Notes: a model not told the origin generated them from the sequence alone. DNA of 64,000 nucleotides from Betaproteobacteria bacterium CG2_30_68_42 (GCA_001872285.1 MNXU01000051.1:107-64106); one strand, 5' to 3'. Numbered from the stretch's first letter, positions 1 through 10,196 are shown. Made by a program: numbers and translations.

Positions 1-433
1 CCTTCTGCGGCTCGTGGCAGCCGAAGCAGGCCTTGGCGGCATTTCCCGCCACCGCCCGTTCCGTCTTCGAATCGCCCTTGAAGCCCTCGAAGCCCCAGCC
101 GCCGGTTTCGGCGTACTTCTTCGCATCCTTGTGCATCACGCCAAGCACCTTGCGTGCTCCCTCCTGCACGGTGTTGTCCGCGCTCTTCGCCTCGAGCAGG
201 TCGAACACGATGACCGAGCCGTCGGCGAACCTGCCGGACTTGTACCCGGCCAGCGCCTTCGGATTGGCGTACAGGTGATGGATGCCGCCGAAGGCCTCGT
301 ACAGGGCGTGACCCGGCGCGATCACCATGCTCTTGACATGGGTCCAGGCGCGGTAGCCCTGCGGATAGGGCACCGGGGCGGCGGCCAGCGCGGGCGCGGC
401 GAGCGCCGCGAGGAGGATCAGGGTCTTCTTCAT
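1..433 (-). CDS. cytochrome P460 family protein (3' end lies beyond the window edge)
   Basis: Manual minus-strand translation from ATG at 433-431: MKKTLILLAALAAPALAAAP (signal peptide)...HHLYANPKALAGYKSG...GWGFEGFKGD...ACFGCHEPQK. A CXXCH heme motif sits near the edge. It is missing from the ORF track because no stop codon lies in the window. Confidence 0.8.
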   Translation of the reverse strand, partial: MKKTLILLAALAAPALAAAPVPYPQGYRAWTHVKSMVIAPGHALYEAFGGIHHLYANPKALAGYKSGRFADGSVIVFDLLEAKSADNTVQEGARKVLGVMHKDAKKYAETGGWGFEGFKGDSKTERAVAGNAAKACFGCHEPQK

Positions 434-558
434 GCGGGTCTCCTTTCGTGCATAATCGTCGGGCAGGCGATCTGCCTGCCCGGTGTTTTTTACAGCAGCC
501 GCGAGCGCCGGAAAAGCGGGGACGAAACGGTGTCCCGGGCACATTCCGGTGTCCCTTC

Positions 559-969
559 ATGATTTCGCGCGAGAAGAAAATTTCGGCTCCGCCCCCCGTG
601 GCCCGCATGGTCGAGGAGATCGTCGGCTGCAAGTGGTCGCTCGCGGTGCTCGGCCTGGTACGAAACGGGGTGAACCGCCCCGGTGCGATGGAGCACGCCG
701 TCCCCGGCCTGTCGAAGAAGGTGCTCAACGAACGGCTGCGCAAGCTCGTCCGCTTCGGGATCCTGGAGCGGCAGGCCTACCCCGAATTGCCGCCGCGCGT
801 GGAGTACAGACTCACCGGCTTCGGCGAGAAATTCTCCGGGCTGATGGACGGGGTCGAGTCGCTGCAAGCCGAGATCGAGGCGGCGTCGCGGGCAGACGTG
901 GCGTCGGCTCCGCCCGTTCAGCCGAGGGCGATGCGGCGCGGCGCCGCGGATGCGGGTTCGGGATCTTGA
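559..969 (+). CDS. HxlR-family winged-helix transcriptional regulator
   Basis: Internal ATG at 559 of ORF 448..969. IVGCKWSLAVLGLVRNGVNRPGAMEHAVPGLSKKVLNERLRKLVRFGILERQAYPELPPRVEYRLTGFG is a typical HxlR core. Divergent from the P460 gene. Confidence 0.9.
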   Translation: MISREKKISAPPPVARMVEEIVGCKWSLAVLGLVRNGVNRPGAMEHAVPGLSKKVLNERLRKLVRFGILERQAYPELPPRVEYRLTGFGEKFSGLMDGVESLQAEIEAASRADVASAPPVQPRAMRRGAADAGSGS

Positions 970-983
970 CCGCGCAAGATGCG
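916..983. repeat. copy 1 of a 68-bp direct repeat (partner at 4888-4955)
   Basis: Hand alignment at an offset of 3972 nt gives 59/68 identical, including runs of 17 and 14 nt. The minus-strand reading gives ILRGQDPEPASAAPRRIALG*, mirroring the C-terminus of the gene at 4890. Confidence 0.85.
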
Positions 984-1057
984 GGACGAGGGTGGGCGCG
1001 GCAGGGCCGGATTGGCGCAGTGAAGCCGCGGTGCAAGGTGAGCCGGATGCAACGCCG

Positions 1058-4000
1058 ATGAGGTCGAGGCGCGCTTCGCTTGGAAAGACCACCCGTCCGA
1101 GTCTCCCGGGAATCCTGCCGCGACCGCGCCTGTTCGCATTGCTGGATGCGGCGCGCGAGCGGCCCGTGGTCTGGGTGAGCGGGCCGCCCGGTTGCGGAAA
1201 GACCACGGCGGTGGCGAGTTACCTCGAGCACGCCGGGCTGCGCGGGCTGTGGTACCAGCTCGACGAGGGCGACGCGGACGTCGCGACCTTCTTCTACTAT
1301 CTGAGGCTTGCGACGTCGGCGCTCGGCGACGAGCGCGACGAGCCGCTGCCGCTGCTGGCGCCCGAGTATCACGCCGGGCTGCCGGTGTTCGCGCGCCGCG
1401 TTTTCCAGTCCCTCTACGCGCGGATCGAGACGCCCTTCGCGATCGTCTTCGACGGCTACGAGGCAGTCTCGGCGTTCTCGCAGCTTCACGAGGTGATGAG
1501 AGATGCGCTCTGCGAGCTGCCGTGCGGCGGCTGCGTCATCCTAATCAGCCGCGGCGATCCGCCCGCGAGCTTCGCGCGCCTGCGCGCGAATCGTGCCATG
1601 GCGACCGTGGGCTGGGAGAGCCTGCGGCTGACGCGCGAGGAAACGGATTCCATCGTTCGCCGGCGCAGGCCGGGAGTGGAGCCCGATACGCTGGACGAAC
1701 TCTACGAGAAGACGCAGGGCTGGGCCGCGGGGCTGGTGCTGTTGCTCGAACAGTCGAGGGTGCTCGGCTCGATCGCCGAACCGCCGGACCCGGCAGCCGG
1801 CCAGCCGGTGTTCGACTATCTGGCGAGCGAGATCTTCGACAGACGCGATGCGCGCACCCAGGACTTCCTCATGCGCACCGCCTTCCTCCCGCAGATGACC
1901 GCGGCACGGCGCGCGAGGTGAGCGGCGAGGAGCGGGCGGAGGAGATTCTGGCCGGACTGTACCGCGACAACCATTTCGTCACGCTGCGCCGCACCCAGCC
2001 GCAGCCCGTGTACCAGTATCACCCGATGTTCCGCGAGTTCCTGCTCGCGCGGGTGCGGGAAACGCTGCATGAGGATCGCCGCCGTGCGGCTCTGAGGACC
2101 GCGGCCGCAGCCATGGAAGCGACGGGTCAGGGGGAAGAGGCGGTCGCGCTGTACCGCGAAAGCCGGGACTGGGACGAGATGGCGCGGCTGATCGGCGCCC
2201 ATGCGGAGGCGATGCTCGGCCAGGGCCGCGGGGAGACGCTCGCACACTGGGTGGAAGACCTGCCTCCCGAGGCGCGCGAGCGGCATCCCTGGGTCGAATT
2301 CTGGGCGGCGGCCAGCCGGGCGCAGATCGCGCCGCGCGAGGCGCGGGTGCGGTATGAAAAGGCCTTCGAGCGGTTTCGCGCCCTGCCGTCGCCCGACCGG
2401 ACCGGAATGGCGCTTGCCGCCTCGGGCGCGATGGATGCGATCCTCTACGAGCTCGACGACTTCTCCTTGCTCGACCGATGGATCGCGATCCTCGACGAAG
2501 CGGAGAGCCGCGGCGTGAGCTACCCCTCCGCGGCGGTGGAGGCGCGCGTCGCCTGCGGCATGGTGTTCTCGCTCACGCTGCGCCAGCCGCAGCGGCGCGA
2601 CATCGAACGGTGGATCGCTCGCGCGCTCGATCGTGCGCGCGAAGTGCCCGATCCCAACCTGAAGATGTTCGTCGGGCTCCTGTGCGCGCTGACGCTGATG
2701 TGGACCGGGCTCCATGCCAGGGCGCTCGAGCTGATCGAGGCGATGCGCGGGATCGCTGGATCGCCGGGCGTATCGCCGTTCTCGCGCATCACGCTGAAGA
2801 ACGTCGAAGCGATGTATTACATGCTGACGGCGGACGGGAAACGATGCATGGAAGCGGCGCGCGAGGGCCTGGAACTCGCGCGAACGGCCGGCGTGACGAC
2901 CTGGACCTTTCAGTTGCTGGTGCACGCGTACGGCGGGGCGCTGGGTGTGCAGGACCTGGCGACGGCGGCTGAATTTGCTGCGCAGCTCGACGCCCAGAGC
3001 GCACGCGCCGGCCGCCTCGACCAGTGCCTATATCACCACTTCCGGGCCTGGGAGGCGATGCTGCGCAAGGATCTGATGCGCGCGCTGCACTGCGAGCGCA
3101 CGGCGCTGCGGATGGCGATCGAGGCCGGCTGCCCCTACTTCGAGGTGCTGTGCCGGCTCGCGCTCGCGGAGGCTCTCGCCGAATGCAACGACGAGCGCAG
3201 ATGCATCGCACACCTGCAACAGTTGCGGCCGGTCGTGGAGGGCATCGGCAACCATCACCTCGAGTTCACCTGCCTCACGACGGCCGGCCGGATCGCGATC
3301 GAGCACGGCCGGGAACATCCCGGGCGCACCGCCCTGCGCCGCGGGCTGGCGCTCGCGCGCGAATACGGCTATGCGCATTTCCTGTGGTGGCGTCCCGAAG
3401 CGATGGCGCGCGCCTGTGCTCACGCGCTCGATGCGGGAATCGAAGTCGAAACCGTGCGCCACCTGATCGTGCGGCGAGGCCTGGTGCCCGCTCGGCCGCC
3501 CCTGCTGGTCGAGGCTTGGCCATGGATGTTCCGCGTCCGTTGCCTGGGCTCGTTCGAGCTGCTGCGGCACGACGCGCCGCTCGCCGCGGAAGGCAAGGCA
3601 CAGCGCCGCCCGCTGGAGATGCTCAAGCTGCTGATCGCGCAGGGTGGCAGCCGCGTCCCCGAGGAGGCCGTGACCGATGCGCTGTGGCCACGCGTGGAAG
3701 GCGACTCGGCACACCGCTCGTTCACGAGCACGCTGCACCGGCTGCGCAAGCTCCTCGGCGAAGATCGGGCCGTCGTGTTGCACGAGGGCAGGGTGACGCT
3801 GGAGCGCCGCTACTTCTGGGTGGATGTCTGGGCGTTCGACGAAGTCTTCGCACAGATCGAGACGGCGTTTCGCGGATCGCGGGGGGAACCCGGCGCGAGC
3901 CGCATCGAGATGCTGGCCGAGCGGCTGCGCGCGCTCTACCGCGGGCCGTTCATGGCCGGGGAACGGGACGAGGCCGGGTACGTCCAGCCGCGCGACCGCA

Positions 4001-4269
4001 TCCGCGCCCGCTTCGTCCGCGCGATCGGCGAGATCGGCCATCACTGGGAACGATCGGAGCAGTGGGAGCGGGCTCTCGCCTGCTACGAGAGCTGCCTGGA
4101 AGCCGATCCGGTGGTGGAGGCCTTCTACCGCAATCTCATGGTTTGCTACCGGCGCACGGGCCGGCGCGCAGAGGCGATCGAGACCTTCGACCGGCTGCGC
4201 AGGGCGCTTGCCGTGCTCGGCGTGAAACCTTCGTCCGAAACGCGCGCCCTGCTCGAGAAGCTGGCGTAG
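1058..4269 (+). pseudogene. MalT/AfsR(SARP)-like regulator (NTPase + TPR-like middle + OmpR-type wHTH/BTAD), disrupted by a frameshift near 1900-1915
   Basis: The N-terminal part is in ORF 950..1921 (Walker A VSGPPGCGKTT; ...QGWAAGLVLL...FLMRTAFLPQMTAA). It continues in ORF 1192..4269 from ...AREVSGEERAEEILAGLYRDNHFV. The C-terminus reads FRVRCLGSFELLRHDAP...RRPLEMLKLLIA...YFWVDVWAF...YRNLMVCYRRTGRRAEAIETFDRL. The two parts are offset by one nucleotide. Confidence 0.7.
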
Positions 4270-4382
4270 CCGGCACGCAGTGATGCAATCGGTAACCGGC
4301 GCGTAAGCGTAGCCCGCAGGGCCGTATCCGATCATGACCGTACGCGCAGGCCGTTCGCCTGCTGCGATGAAAGGAGAAGGTC

Positions 4383-4850
4383 ATGAACGCGAAAATCAGG
4401 ATCGCCGCGCTGCTGTCGGCCTCCGCGGCAGTGCTCTCCGGATGCTACATCGTCCCGGTCGTCGATGCCCAGGGGAACGTGCAGTATCAGCACTATCCGC
4501 TGGTGCCGCCGGCCGGCTACCCGGTTCCGCCGTCTGCCGGTCCGCAGCCGGTGGTGCTCCAGGCGCGCCTGTATCCCGCGAACGAACTCGCGTCGCGAAC
4601 CGGAGTGCTGAGCGGCACCGTCACCAACATGATGACCGGCAAGGGCCGCTTCCAGTTGCAGTACAACGGCGAGGTGCTGACCGGCGAGGCGACGCGCGTG
4701 TCCAACGACCAGCGCAGGGGCGTGGCGAGCGCCTATGGCTCGAGCGGGACGACCATGAGCTGCGAGTACCAGATGAGCGGCCCGCGCCAGGGCGCCGGCA
4801 CGTGCACGCTCTCGAACGGCGCGAAGTACCAGGTGCACATCGGCTCGTAG
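4383..4850 (+). CDS. hypothetical lipoprotein
   Basis: SD AAGGAGAAGG lies upstream. The N-terminus MNAKIRIAALLSASAAVLSGC carries a lipobox LSGC. I recognise no family. Confidence 0.6.
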   Translation: MNAKIRIAALLSASAAVLSGCYIVPVVDAQGNVQYQHYPLVPPAGYPVPPSAGPQPVVLQARLYPANELASRTGVLSGTVTNMMTGKGRFQLQYNGEVLTGEATRVSNDQRRGVASAYGSSGTTMSCEYQMSGPRQGAGTCTLSNGAKYQVHIGS

Positions 4851-4887
4851 CGCAACGGCCGGTCGGTGTCGGGAAGCGGGCCGCCGC

Positions 4888-4955
4888 GTTCAGCCGAGGG
4901 CGATCCGGCGCGGTGCCGCGCAAACGGGCTCGAGATCGGGACCGCGCAAGATGCG
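4888..4955. repeat. copy 2 of the 68-bp direct repeat (partner at 916-983)
   Basis: See the entry at 916-983. This copy encodes the real C-terminus (RILRGPDLEPVCAAPRRIALG*) of the minus-strand gene 4890..5948. Confidence 0.85.
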
Positions 4956-5948
4956 CTGCCAGTAGGACTCGTGCGCCGGCGTTCCGGCCGGCCAGTCGGC
5001 GAGGAAGGCGCGTTCCCATGCGGGCGCGTCGTATTCCACGGGGATCGCCTCGATGCGCACGGTCGAGAGTTCTGCGCCATAGACTGCGGCCACAGGCGCG
5101 CGCGAGGCCGCGATCCGGGTGATCAGCCCGTGGCGCGTGGCGGCGAAGTTCGGCATGCCGGCCGCGCCGTTGTTGATCACCGCGCGTTCGCCGCCGCGGG
5201 TGTCGAAGATCCGGAAGACGGGAGCGCAGGTGTGACTGCTCGCGAAGACATCCACGAGGGAGTCGCGGAACACTGCGCGCAGCCAGTCCGCCTGGCCGGG
5301 ATCGTCGAGCGCCTGCCGGTCGAAGCGCCAGCCGGCGAGATTGCCCGCGTCGCCATGCACCACGGCGATCCGGAGCCGGCCGACCTCGAACAGCGCGTGC
5401 ATCGGCAGCCGCGCGAGGCGCGCGAGCAGGGCCGGGAAGCGCAGCGCGGTCTGGCGCAATCGCGCATGGATGCGATTCGAGCGCTCCACCGTCTCCGGCG
5501 CGACTTCCGGCGGATAGGCGCAGCCGCAGCCGATGCCTTCGTCATCGCCGGCGAGCGCGACCTCAACGTTGCCCGCAAGCGCGCAGTGCGCTGCTACGCC
5601 GCGGTCGATGCGCTCGAAGCTCTCGTCGTCGATGTCGAACCAGTGGAAATCGCCGTTGAAGGCGATCGTCACCGGCTGCGTTTCGCGCGCGGCGAGCGCG
5701 CTGATCGCCTCAAGCGCATGGACGTTGCCATAGAGTCCGCCGGCGACATAGAGCACTTCGGCGCGCCGCACGGGGGCCGAGGCGAAGATCGTGGCGGGGT
5801 ACGACCAGCGCAGCGGGCAGGCGCGCCCGGGCGTCCGCAGCGACGCGATCGGTGCGGCGTTCAGCGGGCGAAGCGTGTCGCATCCCATGGCGCGCACCCG
5901 ATGCTTCACCGTCGCCCCGCCCTGGACGCGCGCCGGCGTCGCTCGCAA
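4890..5948 (-). CDS. metallophosphoesterase-like protein co-transcribed with arsS (start may be the ATG at 5888)
   Basis: ORF 4890..5948 begins 4 nt after the arsS stop. Translation contains VLYVAGGLYGNVHALEAI...IAFNGDFHWFDID...VVHGDAGN...ASSHTC, a calcineurin-like phosphoesterase pattern. Confidence 0.7.
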   Translation of the reverse strand: MRATPARVQGGATVKHRVRAMGCDTLRPLNAAPIASLRTPGRACPLRWSYPATIFASAPVRRAEVLYVAGGLYGNVHALEAISALAARETQPVTIAFNGDFHWFDIDDESFERIDRGVAAHCALAGNVEVALAGDDEGIGCGCAYPPEVAPETVERSNRIHARLRQTALRFPALLARLARLPMHALFEVGRLRIAVVHGDAGNLAGWRFDRQALDDPGQADWLRAVFRDSLVDVFASSHTCAPVFRIFDTRGGERAVINNGAAGMPNFAATRHGLITRIAASRAPVAAVYGAELSTVRIEAIPVEYDAPAWERAFLADWPAGTPAHESYWQRILRGPDLEPVCAAPRRIALG

Positions 5949-5952
5949 GCGC

Positions 5953-6918
5953 TCAGGCCGCGAGCGCGCCGCCGCAGCTCGACCCCTGCCCGGCCGTGCA
6001 GCCGTAGCAATGATTCATCACCGCGATCGGGTTTCCGGCGAGATCGCGGCCGACGAGGTCCGCGATCTTCACCCGCGCCCGCTCGGGCAGCCGCAGGGGC
6101 AGTCCCAGCATCTGGTTGAAGTCGCAGTCATACACCCAGCCCTGCCAGTCCACGCTCAGCAGGCTGCGGCACATCACGGCTTCGAGGTTCTCTTCGCGGT
6201 GCGCCTCGCGCAGCGTGCGCATGTAGGAACCGAACTGGCCCCTGGACACGAGCGTGCTGCCGAAGCGCTGGATCGGCATGTTGGCGAGCGTGAGCAGGCG
6301 GGTGAACTCGATGCCGTAGCCGGTCGCGAGCCGCTGCCGGTATTCCACCTCCAGCCGGTGCTGTTCCGGCGGCAGGCTGGGTCCCTGCGGGTTGTAGACG
6401 AGGCTGAGCTCGAGGTCCGAACCCGCGCGCCCGTAGCCGAGGCCGTTGAGCCGGCGCAGGACGGCGATGCTGCGCGCGAACACGCCTGCGCCGCGCTGGC
6501 GGTCGACGTTTTCCTCGAGGTAGCAGGGCAGCGAGGCGACGATCTCCACCCGGTGGGCGGCGAGGAATCCGGCCAGATCCTCCATCCCCGGCTCGAGCAG
6601 GATGGTGAGGTTGCAGCGGTCGATGACCTGCACGCCGAGCGCGTGCGCCTCTCGGACGAGATCGCGGAAGCCTTCGTTGAGCTCGGGCGCACCGCCGGTC
6701 AGATCGAGCCGTCCCACCCGCTGCTCGCGCACGAAGGCGAGCACGGCCGCCATGGTCTCGCGCGACATCGCCTCGGTGCGCTTCGGGCCGGCATTCACGT
6801 GGCAATGGAGGCAGGACTGGTTGCAGCGGTAGCCCAGGTTGGCCTGCACGGTCTCGATTCCGCGGCGGCGGATCGCGGGGAAGTCGGTGCTGCGCAGCAG
6901 GGCGACGGTGGCGTGCAT
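5953..6918 (-). CDS. arsS: radical SAM/Cys-rich protein of the ArsS (arsenosugar biosynthesis) family
   Basis: ATG at 6918-6916 inside ORF 5953..7566. Radical-SAM motif LGYRCNQSCLHCHV, and the family-typical C-terminal Cys-rich tail NHCYGCTAGQGSSCGGALAA. Confidence 0.8.
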   Translation of the reverse strand: MHATVALLRSTDFPAIRRRGIETVQANLGYRCNQSCLHCHVNAGPKRTEAMSRETMAAVLAFVREQRVGRLDLTGGAPELNEGFRDLVREAHALGVQVIDRCNLTILLEPGMEDLAGFLAAHRVEIVASLPCYLEENVDRQRGAGVFARSIAVLRRLNGLGYGRAGSDLELSLVYNPQGPSLPPEQHRLEVEYRQRLATGYGIEFTRLLTLANMPIQRFGSTLVSRGQFGSYMRTLREAHREENLEAVMCRSLLSVDWQGWVYDCDFNQMLGLPLRLPERARVKIADLVGRDLAGNPIAVMNHCYGCTAGQGSSCGGALAA

Positions 6919-7050
6919 GTTCGGCGTTCCGAAGGACGGCGGGCGAATTGTACCGACGCTCGCGACATCCGGCTTCTTACACCCGGTTTCCCGGCCGGAA
7001 CGCCACGGCCGCGTGCTATGCTGGAATGCGGCAAGGCGAGGGAGGAGGCC

Positions 7051-7524
7051 ATGGAACGCTTCACCATTTCGCTCGACGAGAATCTGGCGCGCGAGTTCGA
7101 CGCGCTGATCCCCAGCCGCGGCTACGAAAACCGCTCCGAGGCGGTGCGCGACATCCTGCGGGCCAGGATCGAAGAGAGCCGCCTCGAGCGCAGGCAGGCG
7201 CCCTACTGCATCGCGGCGCTCTCCTACATCTACAACCATCACGAGCGCGATCTGGCCGAGCGCCTGACCTCGGCCCAGCACGCGCATCACGATCTCACCG
7301 TATCGACCATGCACGCGCATCTCGATCACGACAACTGCATGGAGACCGTGATCCTGCGCGGGTCGACCGGCGCGGTGCGCAAGTTCGCCGATGCGATGAT
7401 GGCCGAGCGCGGGGTGCGCCACGGCGCGCTCAACCTGGTGCCGGCCGACCTCGATCCGGGGCGCCATCATCACCACCACGGTCCGGATCATCCCTACCAC
7501 ATGCACACCCGTCCGAAGTCCTGA
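7051..7524 (+). CDS. nikR: nickel-responsive transcriptional regulator NikR
   Basis: SD GGAGGAGG, then ATG at 7051. MERFTISLDENLAREFDALIPSRGYENRSEAVRDILR is a ribbon-helix-helix. This is followed by an ACT-like metal domain (HHERDL...HAHLDHDNCMETVILRG) and a His-rich tail GRHHHHHGPDHPYHMH. Confidence 0.9.
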   Translation: MERFTISLDENLAREFDALIPSRGYENRSEAVRDILRARIEESRLERRQAPYCIAALSYIYNHHERDLAERLTSAQHAHHDLTVSTMHAHLDHDNCMETVILRGSTGAVRKFADAMMAERGVRHGALNLVPADLDPGRHHHHHGPDHPYHMHTRPKS

Positions 7525-7526
7525 CC

Positions 7527-8912
7527 ATGGCGAGGCGGCGCGATCCGGAAGGCGGAGAGGGCGCACGCGTGGTTGCCCCCGTGCTGCCCGCGCACGTGCT
7601 CGATCGTCCGCCCGAGGGCGTGGGCGAGGACGTGTGGATCGAGGTCATCCGCAAGATGGACGAGGTCTACAGCGACCTGCTCCAGTACGAGGTCGCGCTC
7701 GAGGAGAAGAACGCGGCGCTGGAAGAGACCCAGAAATTCATCTTTAGCGTGCTCGGCTCGATGTCGGACATCCTCGTCGTATGCGATCGCCATGGCGACA
7801 TCCAGGAGGTCAACCACGCGCTGGCCGAACTCACCGGCCGGGACGAGGCCGGGCTGCGCGGCGCGCCGCTGCGCAGCCTGTTCGCCGACGAGGACTCGCG
7901 CGAGCGCGCCGAGCGCTTCCTGCGCGAGCTGCACGGGGAACGCATCCAGGACTGCGAGCTCCAATTCCGCTCCCGCGACGGGGCCGTGCCGGTCGCAGTG
8001 AACTGCACGCCGCGCCTGTCGCCGGTGGGGAAGTTCGTCGGCCTGGTGGTCACGGGCCGCCCGGTGGGCGAGCTGCGGCGCGCCTACGAGGCGCTGCGCC
8101 GGGCGCATGAAGAGCTCAAGCGCGCGCAGCAGCAGCTCATCCACTCCGAGAAGATGGCCTCGCTCGGGCGTCTGGTGGCGGGCGTCGCGCATGAACTCAA
8201 CAACCCGATCGGCTTCGTGCTGGGGAACGTCCATGCGCTCCAGCGCTATGGCCGGCGCATGCGCGAATACATCGACGCCATCCACGCCGGCAGACCCGCG
8301 GACGAGATCGCGGAGCTTCGCGTTCGGCTTCGCATCGATCGGCTGATCGAGGATATGCAGCCGCTCATCGATGGAACGATGGAAGGCGCGGAGCGCACGC
8401 GCGACATCGTCGCCGGACTGCGGCGCTTCTCCGCAGCCGACCGCGGCGCGGAGGAGGTCTTCGATCTCGCGGCGGTCGTCGATCGCAGCGTGCACTGGGT
8501 GGTGAAGGCATCCGGCTCGAAGATTCGGATCGATCTGGACCTGAGCGGCGAGCTTCCGGTATCGGGCTCACCGGGGCAGATGCAACAGGTGCTGGTCAAC
8601 CTGGTCCAGAACGCGATCGACAGCACCGAACAGCGGGAAGATGCGCGCCTCGCCATCCGCGGCGAGGCGGTCGGCGACCGCGTCGTCCTTCTCCTGCATG
8701 ACAACGGGCCGGGCTTCAGGCAGGAGAGCCTGGACAGGGCGTTCGACCCGTTCTTCACCACGAAGCCGGTCGGCAAGGGCACCGGGCTGGGGCTGTCGAT
8801 CAGCTACGGCATCGTGCAGCGTCACGGCGGAAGCCTCACCGCCGCCAACCACCCGGACGGCGGGGCGCTGATGTCCCTGAGCCTTCCGCTCGCGCGGCGC
8901 CCGGCGCCGTAG
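7527..8912 (+). CDS. cytoplasmic PAS-domain sensor histidine kinase
   Basis: The ATG at 7527 is 2 nt after the nikR stop. PAS region SMSDILVVCDRHGDIQEVNHALAELTG, H-box SEKMASLGRLVAGVAHELNNP, N/G boxes LVNLVQNAID...DNGPGF...GKGTGLGLSISYGIV. No transmembrane segment, and no response regulator adjacent. Confidence 0.9.
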   Translation: MARRRDPEGGEGARVVAPVLPAHVLDRPPEGVGEDVWIEVIRKMDEVYSDLLQYEVALEEKNAALEETQKFIFSVLGSMSDILVVCDRHGDIQEVNHALAELTGRDEAGLRGAPLRSLFADEDSRERAERFLRELHGERIQDCELQFRSRDGAVPVAVNCTPRLSPVGKFVGLVVTGRPVGELRRAYEALRRAHEELKRAQQQLIHSEKMASLGRLVAGVAHELNNPIGFVLGNVHALQRYGRRMREYIDAIHAGRPADEIAELRVRLRIDRLIEDMQPLIDGTMEGAERTRDIVAGLRRFSAADRGAEEVFDLAAVVDRSVHWVVKASGSKIRIDLDLSGELPVSGSPGQMQQVLVNLVQNAIDSTEQREDARLAIRGEAVGDRVVLLLHDNGPGFRQESLDRAFDPFFTTKPVGKGTGLGLSISYGIVQRHGGSLTAANHPDGGALMSLSLPLARRPAP

Positions 8913-8921
8913 GCCGGGCGC

Positions 8922-10196
8922 TCAACCCGACTGCCGGCAGTGCGTCTCGCGCGCGATCGAGATCGCGACGAGCGACACGAGCACCCAGGCGACCATCAGC
9001 GCGAATCCGGCCTGGTAGGCGGCGGCATCGTAGATGCGCACACCGCCCGCCGTGGCTCCGTGCCAGGTGCGGTCGAGCATCCAGCCCACCGCCGGCTGGA
9101 GCACCATCCCGCCGCTCATCGTCCCCATGTTGTTCACACCCGAGGAGGTACCCGCGAGCGCGAGCGGAACGGATTCCTTGGCGAAGGCGAATCCGATGAT
9201 GATGCAGCCCGAGACGAAACCCAGCAGCAGGAGCAGCGGCACGAGGACCGGCAGCGGAGCCGCAGGCACGAGCACGATCGTGCCCCAGCCCAGCGCCGCC
9301 GCGGCTGCGCAGCCGACGTAGAGCGGCTTGCGGGCCCCGATCCGCTCCGACCAGGTTCCGAGCACCGGCCCGCCCACGGCCCATGCGATCAGCATGGCGG
9401 AGGTGAGCGCCGCGGCCTCGCGCGCGCTCAGGCCATGGACCTGGCGCAGATAGGGCACGCCCCACAGGCCGGCGAACGTGAGCATGGCGCCGGCGATGCC
9501 GCCGGACGTGACGAGCAGCAGCCACGAGTTCCGGTAAGAGAGCACCTGCGTCAGGCCGCGCCAGATCGAGGGGCGGGCGCGGTCCTCGTGATGCCCGGCG
9601 AAGTGGCTTGCATAACCGAGCTCGGTCGGGTCGTCACGCACACGCAGCCAGATCGCAGCGCATAGAGCGGCAGTCACCACCGCCGAGGCACCCATCACTG
9701 CACGCCAGCCGAAGGCATCCACCAGCATGCGCAGGGGCACCCCGGCGACCACCCCGCCGATCACCCCGACCAGCAGCGCCATCCCGGAAGCCAGTGTGAA
9801 CTGGCTCGGCGTGAACCAGTGGGTCGCGAGCTTTAGCATCGAGACGAAGGCCACCGCGACCGAGCCGCCGATCAGCAGGCGGCCGGCGTTGGCCCAGGCG
9901 GGATCGGGTGCCGCCGCGAACAGCGCGCTGCCCAGCGCGGCCACTCCCGCGCCCAGGGTCAGCAGCCGGCGCGGACCCCAGCGGTCGGCGATGATCCCGG
10001 TCGGGATCTGCATCGCCACGTAGGAATAGAAGTAGAACGCCGACAGGTTGCCGAGGGCGGCGGCGCCGATCGAGAAGTCGGTCATCAGCTTGTCGGTGAT
10101 GACCGCCGGCGCGACGCGCTGGTAGAAGGCGATCAGGTAGAGCGCTGCGCCAAGGCCCCATACGGACCAGGACAGAACGATCGGCGGCGGCATCAA
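8922..10196 (-). CDS. MFS transporter
   Basis: 424 aa and polytopic. Contains MQIPTGIIADRWGPRRLLTLG (MFS signature loop 2-3). Confidence 0.9.
   Translation of the reverse strand: MMPPPIVLSWSVWGLGAALYLIAFYQRVAPAVITDKLMTDFSIGAAALGNLSAFYFYSYVAMQIPTGIIADRWGPRRLLTLGAGVAALGSALFAAAPDPAWANAGRLLIGGSVAVAFVSMLKLATHWFTPSQFTLASGMALLVGVIGGVVAGVPLRMLVDAFGWRAVMGASAVVTAALCAAIWLRVRDDPTELGYASHFAGHHEDRARPSIWRGLTQVLSYRNSWLLLVTSGGIAGAMLTFAGLWGVPYLRQVHGLSAREAAALTSAMLIAWAVGGPVLGTWSERIGARKPLYVGCAAAAALGWGTIVLVPAAPLPVLVPLLLLLGFVSGCIIIGFAFAKESVPLALAGTSSGVNNMGTMSGGMVLQPAVGWMLDRTWHGATAGGVRIYDAAAYQAGFALMVAWVLVSLVAISIARETHCRQSG

Follow-up and report, generated by a model that had tools for sequence, protein, structure and literature searches.

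The DNA analysed here, called the window throughout, is a stretch of 64,000 nt from the metagenome-derived genome of Betaproteobacteria bacterium CG2_30_68_42 (GCA_001872285.1; positions 107-64106 of contig C14, one of 95 contigs). Near its left end a cytochrome P460 gene and the divergent gene of an HxlR-family regulator (hxlR) are followed by a large regulator gene, a lipoprotein gene and, on the opposite strand, a putative metallophosphoesterase-like gene (MPE) linked to an ArsS-type radical SAM gene (Table 1). A direct repeat brackets the regulator-lipoprotein pair: copy 1 lies at the end of hxlR, while copy 2 forms the 3' end of MPE. This repeat is the scar of an old recombination event; it is genuine, fixed and of a known kind, and nothing points to a function or to mobility encoded by an element.

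The repeat and the gene ends it carries

A repeat search of positions 1-8000 returned 915-983 and 4887-4955 as a direct repeat of 69 nt with 87% identity and a spacing of 3972, and by our own count 60 of 69 positions of the ungapped alignment are identical; a preliminary description of this DNA had given the same alignment as 916-983 and 4888-4955 (59 of 68, offset 3972). A single 1-nt gap lengthens the repeat in BLAST to 910-983 (74 nt) against 4881-4955 (75 nt). No other direct repeat in this part of the window comes near it in length or quality and, in the comparison with shuffled sequence that the preliminary description had proposed, it stood far above the controls: the top ungapped diagonal scored 42, against 14.9 ± 1.1 (maximum 18) in 20 dinucleotide-preserving shuffles of positions 1-8000. 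Exactly two copies exist in the 3.1-Mb assembly, which together with this score rules out chance similarity. The inner edge of the repeat is sharp (983/984 and 4955/4956) and coincides, in the minus-strand protein, with the codon boundary that precedes RILRG.

The left junction is present in more than 20 groundwater or aquifer runs. Logan contigs of four independent runs were compared over positions 1-6000: in three of them a single contig starts at position 1, reaches 5806 or beyond and shows 3-7 differences, and that of the fourth covers 1-3512, which includes copy 1 and its junction. All ten public contigs encoding the identical HxlR protein have the same gene order and carry both copies letter for letter. 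Neither an occupied/empty polymorphism nor an excised form was seen, all four runs and all ten contigs being occupied. The repeat structure is fixed in the population, and the agreement of independent assemblies, both the Logan contigs and the public ones, rules out a misassembly. Folding revealed no structured RNA in the repeat (z-scores -0.7 to +1.6), no terminator-like site was found at copy 1 or copy 2, and Rfam gave no matches.

On the minus strand, copy 2 closes the MPE open reading frame (ORF) as ..RILRGPDLEPVCAAPRRIALG*, and reading of the ORF confirmed it as the true C-terminus that the preliminary description had taken it for. Copy 1 reads ..RILRGQDPEPASAAPRRIALG* on the same strand with nothing MPE-like behind it, and in the minus-strand ORF 918-1139 the similarity to MPE is gone beyond RILRG. 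Copy 1 is a fragment of an MPE tail, an MPE 3' end without its gene body, just as it had been described.

On the plus strand, the hxlR ORF terminates inside copy 1, which supplies its last 17 codons and the stop, while the conserved part of the gene stops near nt 885-891. HxlR homologues are mostly 107-112 aa long and cover about 79% of the query (best 120 of 1975, E <= 1e-25), and those aligned terminate 5-8 residues past the LQxE motif, i.e., at residues 108-111 of the window protein. The tail SRADVASAPPVQPRAMRRGAADAGSGS (residues ~111-136, about 26 residues) is without counterpart in the homologues. Since the homologues end at 108-111, the plus-strand codons in copy 1 represent a read-through extension rather than a conserved part of hxlR, and the earlier suggestion that the repeat had kept hxlR intact is not supported, as the gene does not need it.

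Members of the HxlR family typically abut a convergent gene, with 0 nt between the two genes in one locus (L039). In another (L037), the hxlR ORF at 107-535 (P0124, 142 aa, 81% identical) overlaps a convergent Peripla_BP_2 gene at 444-1283 by 92 nt; P0124 has lost its usual stop and reads into the 3' end of its neighbour. An hxlR ORF ending within the tail of a convergent gene is thus a recurring geometry, which fits copy 1 as the tail of a former convergent neighbour. The three closest HxlR contexts have a convergent Peripla_BP_2-SDR-DsbA cluster, lying directly against hxlR in two and ~1.3 kb downstream in the third (L038). The Peripla_BP_2 locus of the window's own genome was inspected for a scar, and none was found; the genes that follow Peripla_BP_2 there, judged from translated ORFs only, look like a PaiB-like and a gamma-glutamyltranspeptidase gene. 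On its other side, hxlR is kept as a divergent pair with P460 in 25 of 80 related HxlR loci.

The label metallophosphoesterase is tentative, since it is based on a sub-threshold Metallophos_2 match (E = 0.026) and on the names given to homologues; no Pfam or NCBIfam match to MPE lies above threshold. Homologues are numerous (6716 at E <= 1e-30), the closest outside the population being 79% and 69% identical, and the gene adjoins ArsS in many of the relatives examined. MPE belongs to an unnamed, widespread family of ArsS partners.

Table 1. Features at the left end of the window, ordered by position
Feature	Position	Strand	Description
Cytochrome P460 gene	1..433	-	PF16694, 106 bits; 3' end beyond window start; divergent partner of hxlR
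hxlR-family regulator gene, 136 aa	559..969	+	PF01638, 69.5 bits, residues 21-101
Copy 1	910..983	-	orphan MPE 3' fragment: 21 codons, stop 918-920, ~8-9 nt 3' flank
Spacer upstream of regulator	984..1057	+	Fur0039 homology starts at ~1010-1040
STAND NTPase / MalT-like winged-helix / TPR / BTAD regulator gene	1058..4269	+	AAA_16, NPHP3_N and BTAD Pfam matches; MalT NCBIfam match
Lipoprotein gene, 155 aa, lipobox LSGC	4383..4850	+	unnamed family; conserved downstream partner of regulator
Copy 2	4881..4955	-	functional MPE 3' end, stop 4890-4892, ~9 nt 3' flank
ArsS-linked putative metallophosphoesterase-like gene (MPE)	4890..5909	-	332-339 aa according to gene callers
ArsS-type radical SAM gene	5953..6918	-	TIGR04167, 447 bits (cutoff 300); Radical_SAM and DUF3641; upstream partner of MPE

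The bracketed module, the nearest relatives and the left flank

The ~3.9-kb segment between the copies holds the regulator and the lipoprotein gene only, with 74 + 113 + ~30 nt of non-coding DNA. No recombinase, integrase or transposase was found between the copies in ORFs or in Pfam and NCBIfam domain searches, in agreement with the preliminary description, and no ORF or domain of a tyrosine or serine recombinase, or of a remnant of one, lies beside either copy. Among the 25 longest inverted repeats listed, none pairs 984-1040 with 4851-4886. The preliminary description had suggested comparing the GC3 and codon usage of the segment with its flanks. Its composition does not mark it as foreign: all genes have a GC3 of 0.86-0.91, and at 0.0135 the tetranucleotide distance of 984-4886 lies within the genome null of 0.016 ± 0.004.

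An intact regulator measures ~1075 aa; in the window, the loss of one nucleotide from the G run at 1902-1903 splits the gene. The frameshift reported in the preliminary description is thus real for the window, but it reflects a GG/GGG length polymorphism (window 1900-1905) and intact alleles exist: the window and eight of the ten public contigs read GCGGCAC, while two (L053 and L048) read GCGGGCAC, the extra G is also present in run X4, and L053 encodes an intact 1075-aa regulator. A different 1-nt insertion follows position 3641 in run X2, and further breaks of the regulator occur in L052 and L048. The lipoprotein has 3427 homologues and no Pfam or NCBIfam match.

The order regulator, then lipoprotein, recurs at 65-72% identity in three Burkholderiales-type contigs (L056, L057 and L058), in different surroundings, with a response regulator upstream and VWA/MoxR downstream. 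In two other genomes (L054 and L055) all that remains of the regulator is 39 codons from its start and 42 from its end. No MPE-tail-like sequence lies beside the module in these five genomes. The regulator-lipoprotein pair is an independent, self-contained module in other genomes, and its occurrence in other contexts leaves an insertion between HxlR and the MPE tail as the most economical topology.

The nearest sequenced relative is Fur0039, a Rhodocyclaceae metagenome-assembled genome (GCA_054683395.1) in which the region is read as one contig (L035). Its DNA is 81-85% identical to the window, with 77-79% amino acid identity for MPE and 91% for ArsS. The gene order runs from PBP, HK, a sigma54 regulator, beta-propeller, ABC and FtsX genes to DUF3299, and thereafter through the regulator, the lipoprotein, the convergent MPE and a PEP-CTERM/GerE insertion to ArsS, NikR and HK. 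Fur0039 thus has the regulator-lipoprotein pair at the same place, joined to MPE via a homologous junction, and the repeat just once, at the MPE end (85% over 68 nt to copy 2). In the one contig read, P460, HxlR and copy 1 are absent from the locus; the stop of DUF3299 is followed after 77 nt by the start of the regulator. In BLAST, the first window position with homology to Fur0039 is 1049, but the homology probably starts at ~1010, from where an ungapped match of ~69% runs on. Because 984-1040 does not match the DUF3299-regulator spacer of Fur0039 significantly (score 18 vs 14.8 ± 2.5 in shuffled sequence), the breakpoint of synteny can be placed between 983 and ~1040 and no finer.

Two large deletions, equivalent to positions 1789-2261 and 3199-4696 of the window, have badly damaged the pair in Fur0039. 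The second (L035 11136-11154) sits between copies of AACGAC(G/C)AGCGCAG found at 3187-3200 and 4704-4717 of the window; it spans 1.5 kb with 14 nt of microhomology, and has fused the regulator to the C-terminus of the lipoprotein. Taken together with the reduced regulators of L054 and L055, these deletions indicate that the large regulator has been lost repeatedly and independently, the lipoprotein gene or its tail being retained. In the same contig, a PEP-CTERM gene and a GerE-family regulator gene are inserted between ArsS and MPE (7937-10004), two genes that lie side by side in the window and most relatives. The genome G001, of the same genus, lacks hxlR altogether. It carries a C-terminal remnant of the lipoprotein with an in-frame stop (contig C104, L032 5132-5284), in an unrelated context away from ArsS-MPE, and this remnant begins at the same point (..DDERRGVASA..) as the fusion in Fur0039, which hints at a shared or a parallel deletion.

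To the left of the window the assembly forks ~28 nt beyond the P460 stop. Contig C95 (PBP', HK', cytochromes, SoxA/Y/Z, thioredoxin, sigma54 regulator') overlaps the head of C14 (C14:1-250), and contig C47 arrives at the same P460 3' end from DUF3299. As a JGI contig (L077) extends from the window across the whole of C95 and on to C47:15608, C95 (7.9 kb) and C47:1-15607 represent alternative cassettes that share one pair of hinges. The main path in run X4, at a depth of 21.5, divides into a C95 branch of ~15-17 and a C47 branch of ~8, the depths summing to that of the shared path, which shows no second fork for 7.3 kb. We read this as two co-existing haplotypes that share P460, HxlR, copy 1 and the regulator, and the difference between C95 and C47 looks like a strain-level cassette replacement. 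Five of the ten public contigs break at the P460-side fork. A search of public contigs with a 40-nt pattern for the DUF3299/P460 junction gave no matches, and no exact protein was found either. The C47-type haplotype has the gene order of Fur0039 on both sides, plus ~6.9 kb between CrcB and PBP that are missing in Fur0039, and at the junction studied here it differs from Fur0039 by exactly a 1.08-kb block of P460, HxlR and copy 1.

Origin of the repeat

The preliminary description had proposed that hxlR and MPE were once convergent, and had suggested looking for them tail-to-tail in relatives. MPE homologues were sought in 41 relatives and 401 genomes of the wider family, and in all 14 MPE loci HxlR, P460, the regulator and the lipoprotein are missing from the 1.5 kb around MPE; HxlR homologues were sought in a large protein collection and 185,579 species genomes, and in none of 80 species genomes (homologues of 84-49% identity) does MPE, ArsS, the regulator or the lipoprotein occur within 5 kb of HxlR. 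A search of JGI metagenomes for the empty site by exact DNA pattern matched the same population only. The expected adjacency was seen in none of the loci, and since relatives are sparse and the lineage is poorly sampled, this absence is weak evidence.

The age of the duplication can be approached through the few sites at hand. Copy 1 and copy 2 differ at 9 of 69 sites, and copy 2 differs from the MPE tail of Fur0039 at ~10 of 68. Copy 1 agrees with copy 2 against Fur0039 at seven sites, copy 2 with Fur0039 against copy 1 at four and copy 1 with Fur0039 against copy 2 at two, while at three sites all differ; divergence between the two species at four-fold sites is 0.21-0.37. The comparison gives mild evidence, not decisive with 69 sites, that the duplication may be no older than the split, or that the copies may stem from two haplotypes that had already diverged.

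The explanation that we favour, although we hold it to be only evenly balanced between right and wrong, is an integrase-independent recombination at the MPE 3' end, a Campbell-type single crossover or an anchored illegitimate recombination, by which the module was inserted between hxlR and MPE. The recipient would have been a chromosome with hxlR tail-to-tail with MPE, and the incoming segment would have consisted of the regulator-lipoprotein module and ~75 nt of an MPE 3' end; its source would have been the same chromosome or some close relative that had the module already beside MPE. Whether a circularised fragment underwent a single crossover or the join was illegitimate, one-sided and anchored by homology, the homologous stretch would have been doubled around the incoming DNA, leaving MPE whole and stranding the other copy by hxlR, whose ORF now runs into it. 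Copy 1 would be a functionless relic, an old or duplicated MPE tail left by recombination without an element-encoded enzyme. The event may have taken place in situ before the split from Fur0039, which would then have lost P460, HxlR and copy 1 by a later deletion, or it may have been a transfer from a Fur0039-like haplotype, in which case Fur0039 would represent the donor type. The former adjacency of hxlR and MPE and the crossover mechanism are thus what we infer from the present arrangement.

In favour of such an insertion, the direct repeats bracket exactly one two-gene module with non-coding flanks of only 74 nt and ~30 nt, and this is the only reading that makes the duplication a direct product of the event. 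The arrangement required of the donor, the module adjoining an MPE 3' end, exists in Fur0039 with a homologous junction, and the additional deletion in Fur0039 is plausible because that genome has suffered several deletions in this stretch. Processes of this type are known: in E. coli conjugation, circular molecules with a short piece of lacZ gave single crossovers that left duplications of 109-950 bp flanking the insert, and these outnumbered true homology-facilitated illegitimate recombination (HFIR) by 56 to 4 (PMC3240628). HFIR and 3'-end displacement are in turn established explanations for orphaned gene ends at type VI secretion system (T6SS) and Rhs loci (PMC5361080).

Several observations weigh against this explanation. 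The recipient arrangement, hxlR directly against MPE, is absent in all 94 loci surveyed above, and the hxlR neighbourhood is missing in both nearest relatives, from the entire genome of G001 and, together with P460, from the locus in Fur0039. The module-MPE junction shared with Fur0039 is diverged like its flanks (81-85% at the nucleotide level), which would place an insertion in situ before the split; the "insert" would be at least as old as the split, or else the P460-HxlR-copy 1 block is the variable part, since Fur0039 has the module-MPE junction. A neutral copy of pre-split age would be expected to show ~16 differences, of which 9 are seen (P(<=9) ~0.04, a Poisson estimate), and copy 1 groups with copy 2 at more sites (7) than copy 2 does with Fur0039 (4). 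Finally, 75 nt at 87% identity would make a poor substrate for homologous recombination, unless the copies were formerly more similar. The original insertion story is thus partly supported: the orphan tail and the self-contained module have stood, while the lack of an empty site, the presence of the pair in Fur0039 and the non-foreign composition of the segment leave other parts of it unsupported or in need of revision.

The main rival is a reverse scenario, which we consider rather unlikely on balance: the module stayed in place, and the 1.08-kb block of P460, HxlR and copy 1 moved in between DUF3299 and the regulator. The ancestral order would be that of Fur0039 (DUF3299, regulator, lipoprotein, convergent MPE), and copy 1 would be the tail of HxlR's former convergent neighbour in the donor, or a templated patch at an illegitimate joint. 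The C47-type haplotype, the minor one in this population, is colinear with Fur0039 both on the left (CrcB ... PBP-HK-sigma54 regulator-beta-propeller-ABC-FtsX-DUF3299) and on the right (regulator-lipoprotein-MPE-ArsS-NikR-HK-MFS-rhodanese), so that besides the content of the far-left cassette and the indels of Fur0039 the block is what distinguishes them; G001 without hxlR, the P460-HxlR pair as a conserved two-gene unit in many contexts and the P460 3' flank as a demonstrated recombination hinge in the population point the same way, and the modest divergence of the two copies and the 7:4:2 site pattern would fit an origin after the split. Against this, the gain of the block needs either a donor with HxlR against an MPE orthologue, seen in none of the 80 genomes, or an unusual templated filler of 74 nt, and it leaves the match to a gene only 4 kb away a coincidence; anchored illegitimate joins are also experimentally much rarer than single-crossover duplications (PMC3240628). 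A former adjacency of hxlR and MPE, the central inference of the preliminary description, would be implied by the gain of the block as much as by the insertion of the module, except where copy 1 is a templated patch; no extant example of it supports the inference.

Direct repeats that include and restore the 3' end of a target gene are the classical signature of genomic islands, and the module is seen in various contexts, so that the copies could be taken for the attL and attR sites of an integrative element that targeted the 3' end of MPE and either lost its integrase by decay or, as a cis-mobilisable element, never had one and was mobilised in trans. We regard this as improbable, given that there is no recombinase and, in the little non-coding DNA available, no room for a decayed one, that the module has no MPE-tail-like flank in the five other genomes, that the composition does not shift, that the repeat occurs just twice in the genome and that no excised or empty form appears in four runs or ten contigs. 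The more specific version, a minimal integrase-less regulator-lipoprotein cassette with a ~75-nt att site that is mobilised in trans, targets the 3' ends of ArsS-linked phosphoesterase genes and restores their tail, strikes us as extremely improbable. Copy 1 might otherwise be the remnant of a second, paralogous MPE convergent to hxlR, the body of which was deleted; the open 21-codon frame with its stop and the frequency of deletions in this region in relatives would suit that origin, but every genome examined has a single MPE, no MPE-like residues follow past RILRG in any frame right of 983, and a prior duplication would be needed of which there is no trace, so that we find it highly improbable. 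The last group of readings, made up of target-site duplication by a transposon, a functional RNA, a terminator, chance and misassembly, is barely credible, the existence of a direct repeat being the extent of its support. Transposases typically duplicate a few bases to roughly 15 bp of their target. A repeat of 74 nt at 87% identity, in a segment with neither transposase nor terminal inverted repeats, rules out transposition by its length, its divergence and the lack of these hallmarks.

Known systems and meaning for the locus

Among the closest known systems, Campbell-type integration likewise brackets an insert with a direct duplication, requires no element-encoded recombinase and can leave the target gene intact (PMC3240628). 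It differs in that the duplication here measures ~75 nt rather than 109-950 bp and has diverged by 13%, and in that the event is ancient and inferred, with neither circular donor nor empty site known. The 3'-end (C-terminal) displacement of Rhs, contact-dependent inhibition (CDI) and T6SS loci (PMC5361080) also leaves an orphaned 3' fragment beyond a module that brought or restored the working 3' end, and like HFIR it combines homology on one side with an illegitimate joint on the other. MPE, in contrast, is not a polymorphic toxin locus: domain searches found no immunity-like partner, both tails are near-identical, and the displaced piece is a single orphan of 21 codons without array or cognate partner gene. 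Integrase-mediated islands likewise have direct repeats that take in the target gene's 3' end, and the gene is reconstituted, but here an integrase or its remnant, a tRNA or tmRNA target, a shift in composition and evidence of excision are all lacking, and the insert comprises two genes. Like the target-site duplications of transposons and insertion sequences, the present repeat flanks an inserted segment in direct orientation, but it is much longer and imperfect.

The scar is real but ordinary, neither a mobile element nor a working signal; its significance lies mainly in the annotation and history of this locus, and no long-standing open question is touched. Copy 1 is better annotated as a gene fragment than as a small ORF, and the 26-residue tail of HxlR is better treated as accidental read-through than as a conserved overlap. 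The regulator is a decaying gene of which intact alleles persist in the population. The left edge of the window is a plasticity zone in an uncultured groundwater lineage of Rhodocyclaceae, in which sox-containing or DUF3299/ABC cassettes swap beside P460.

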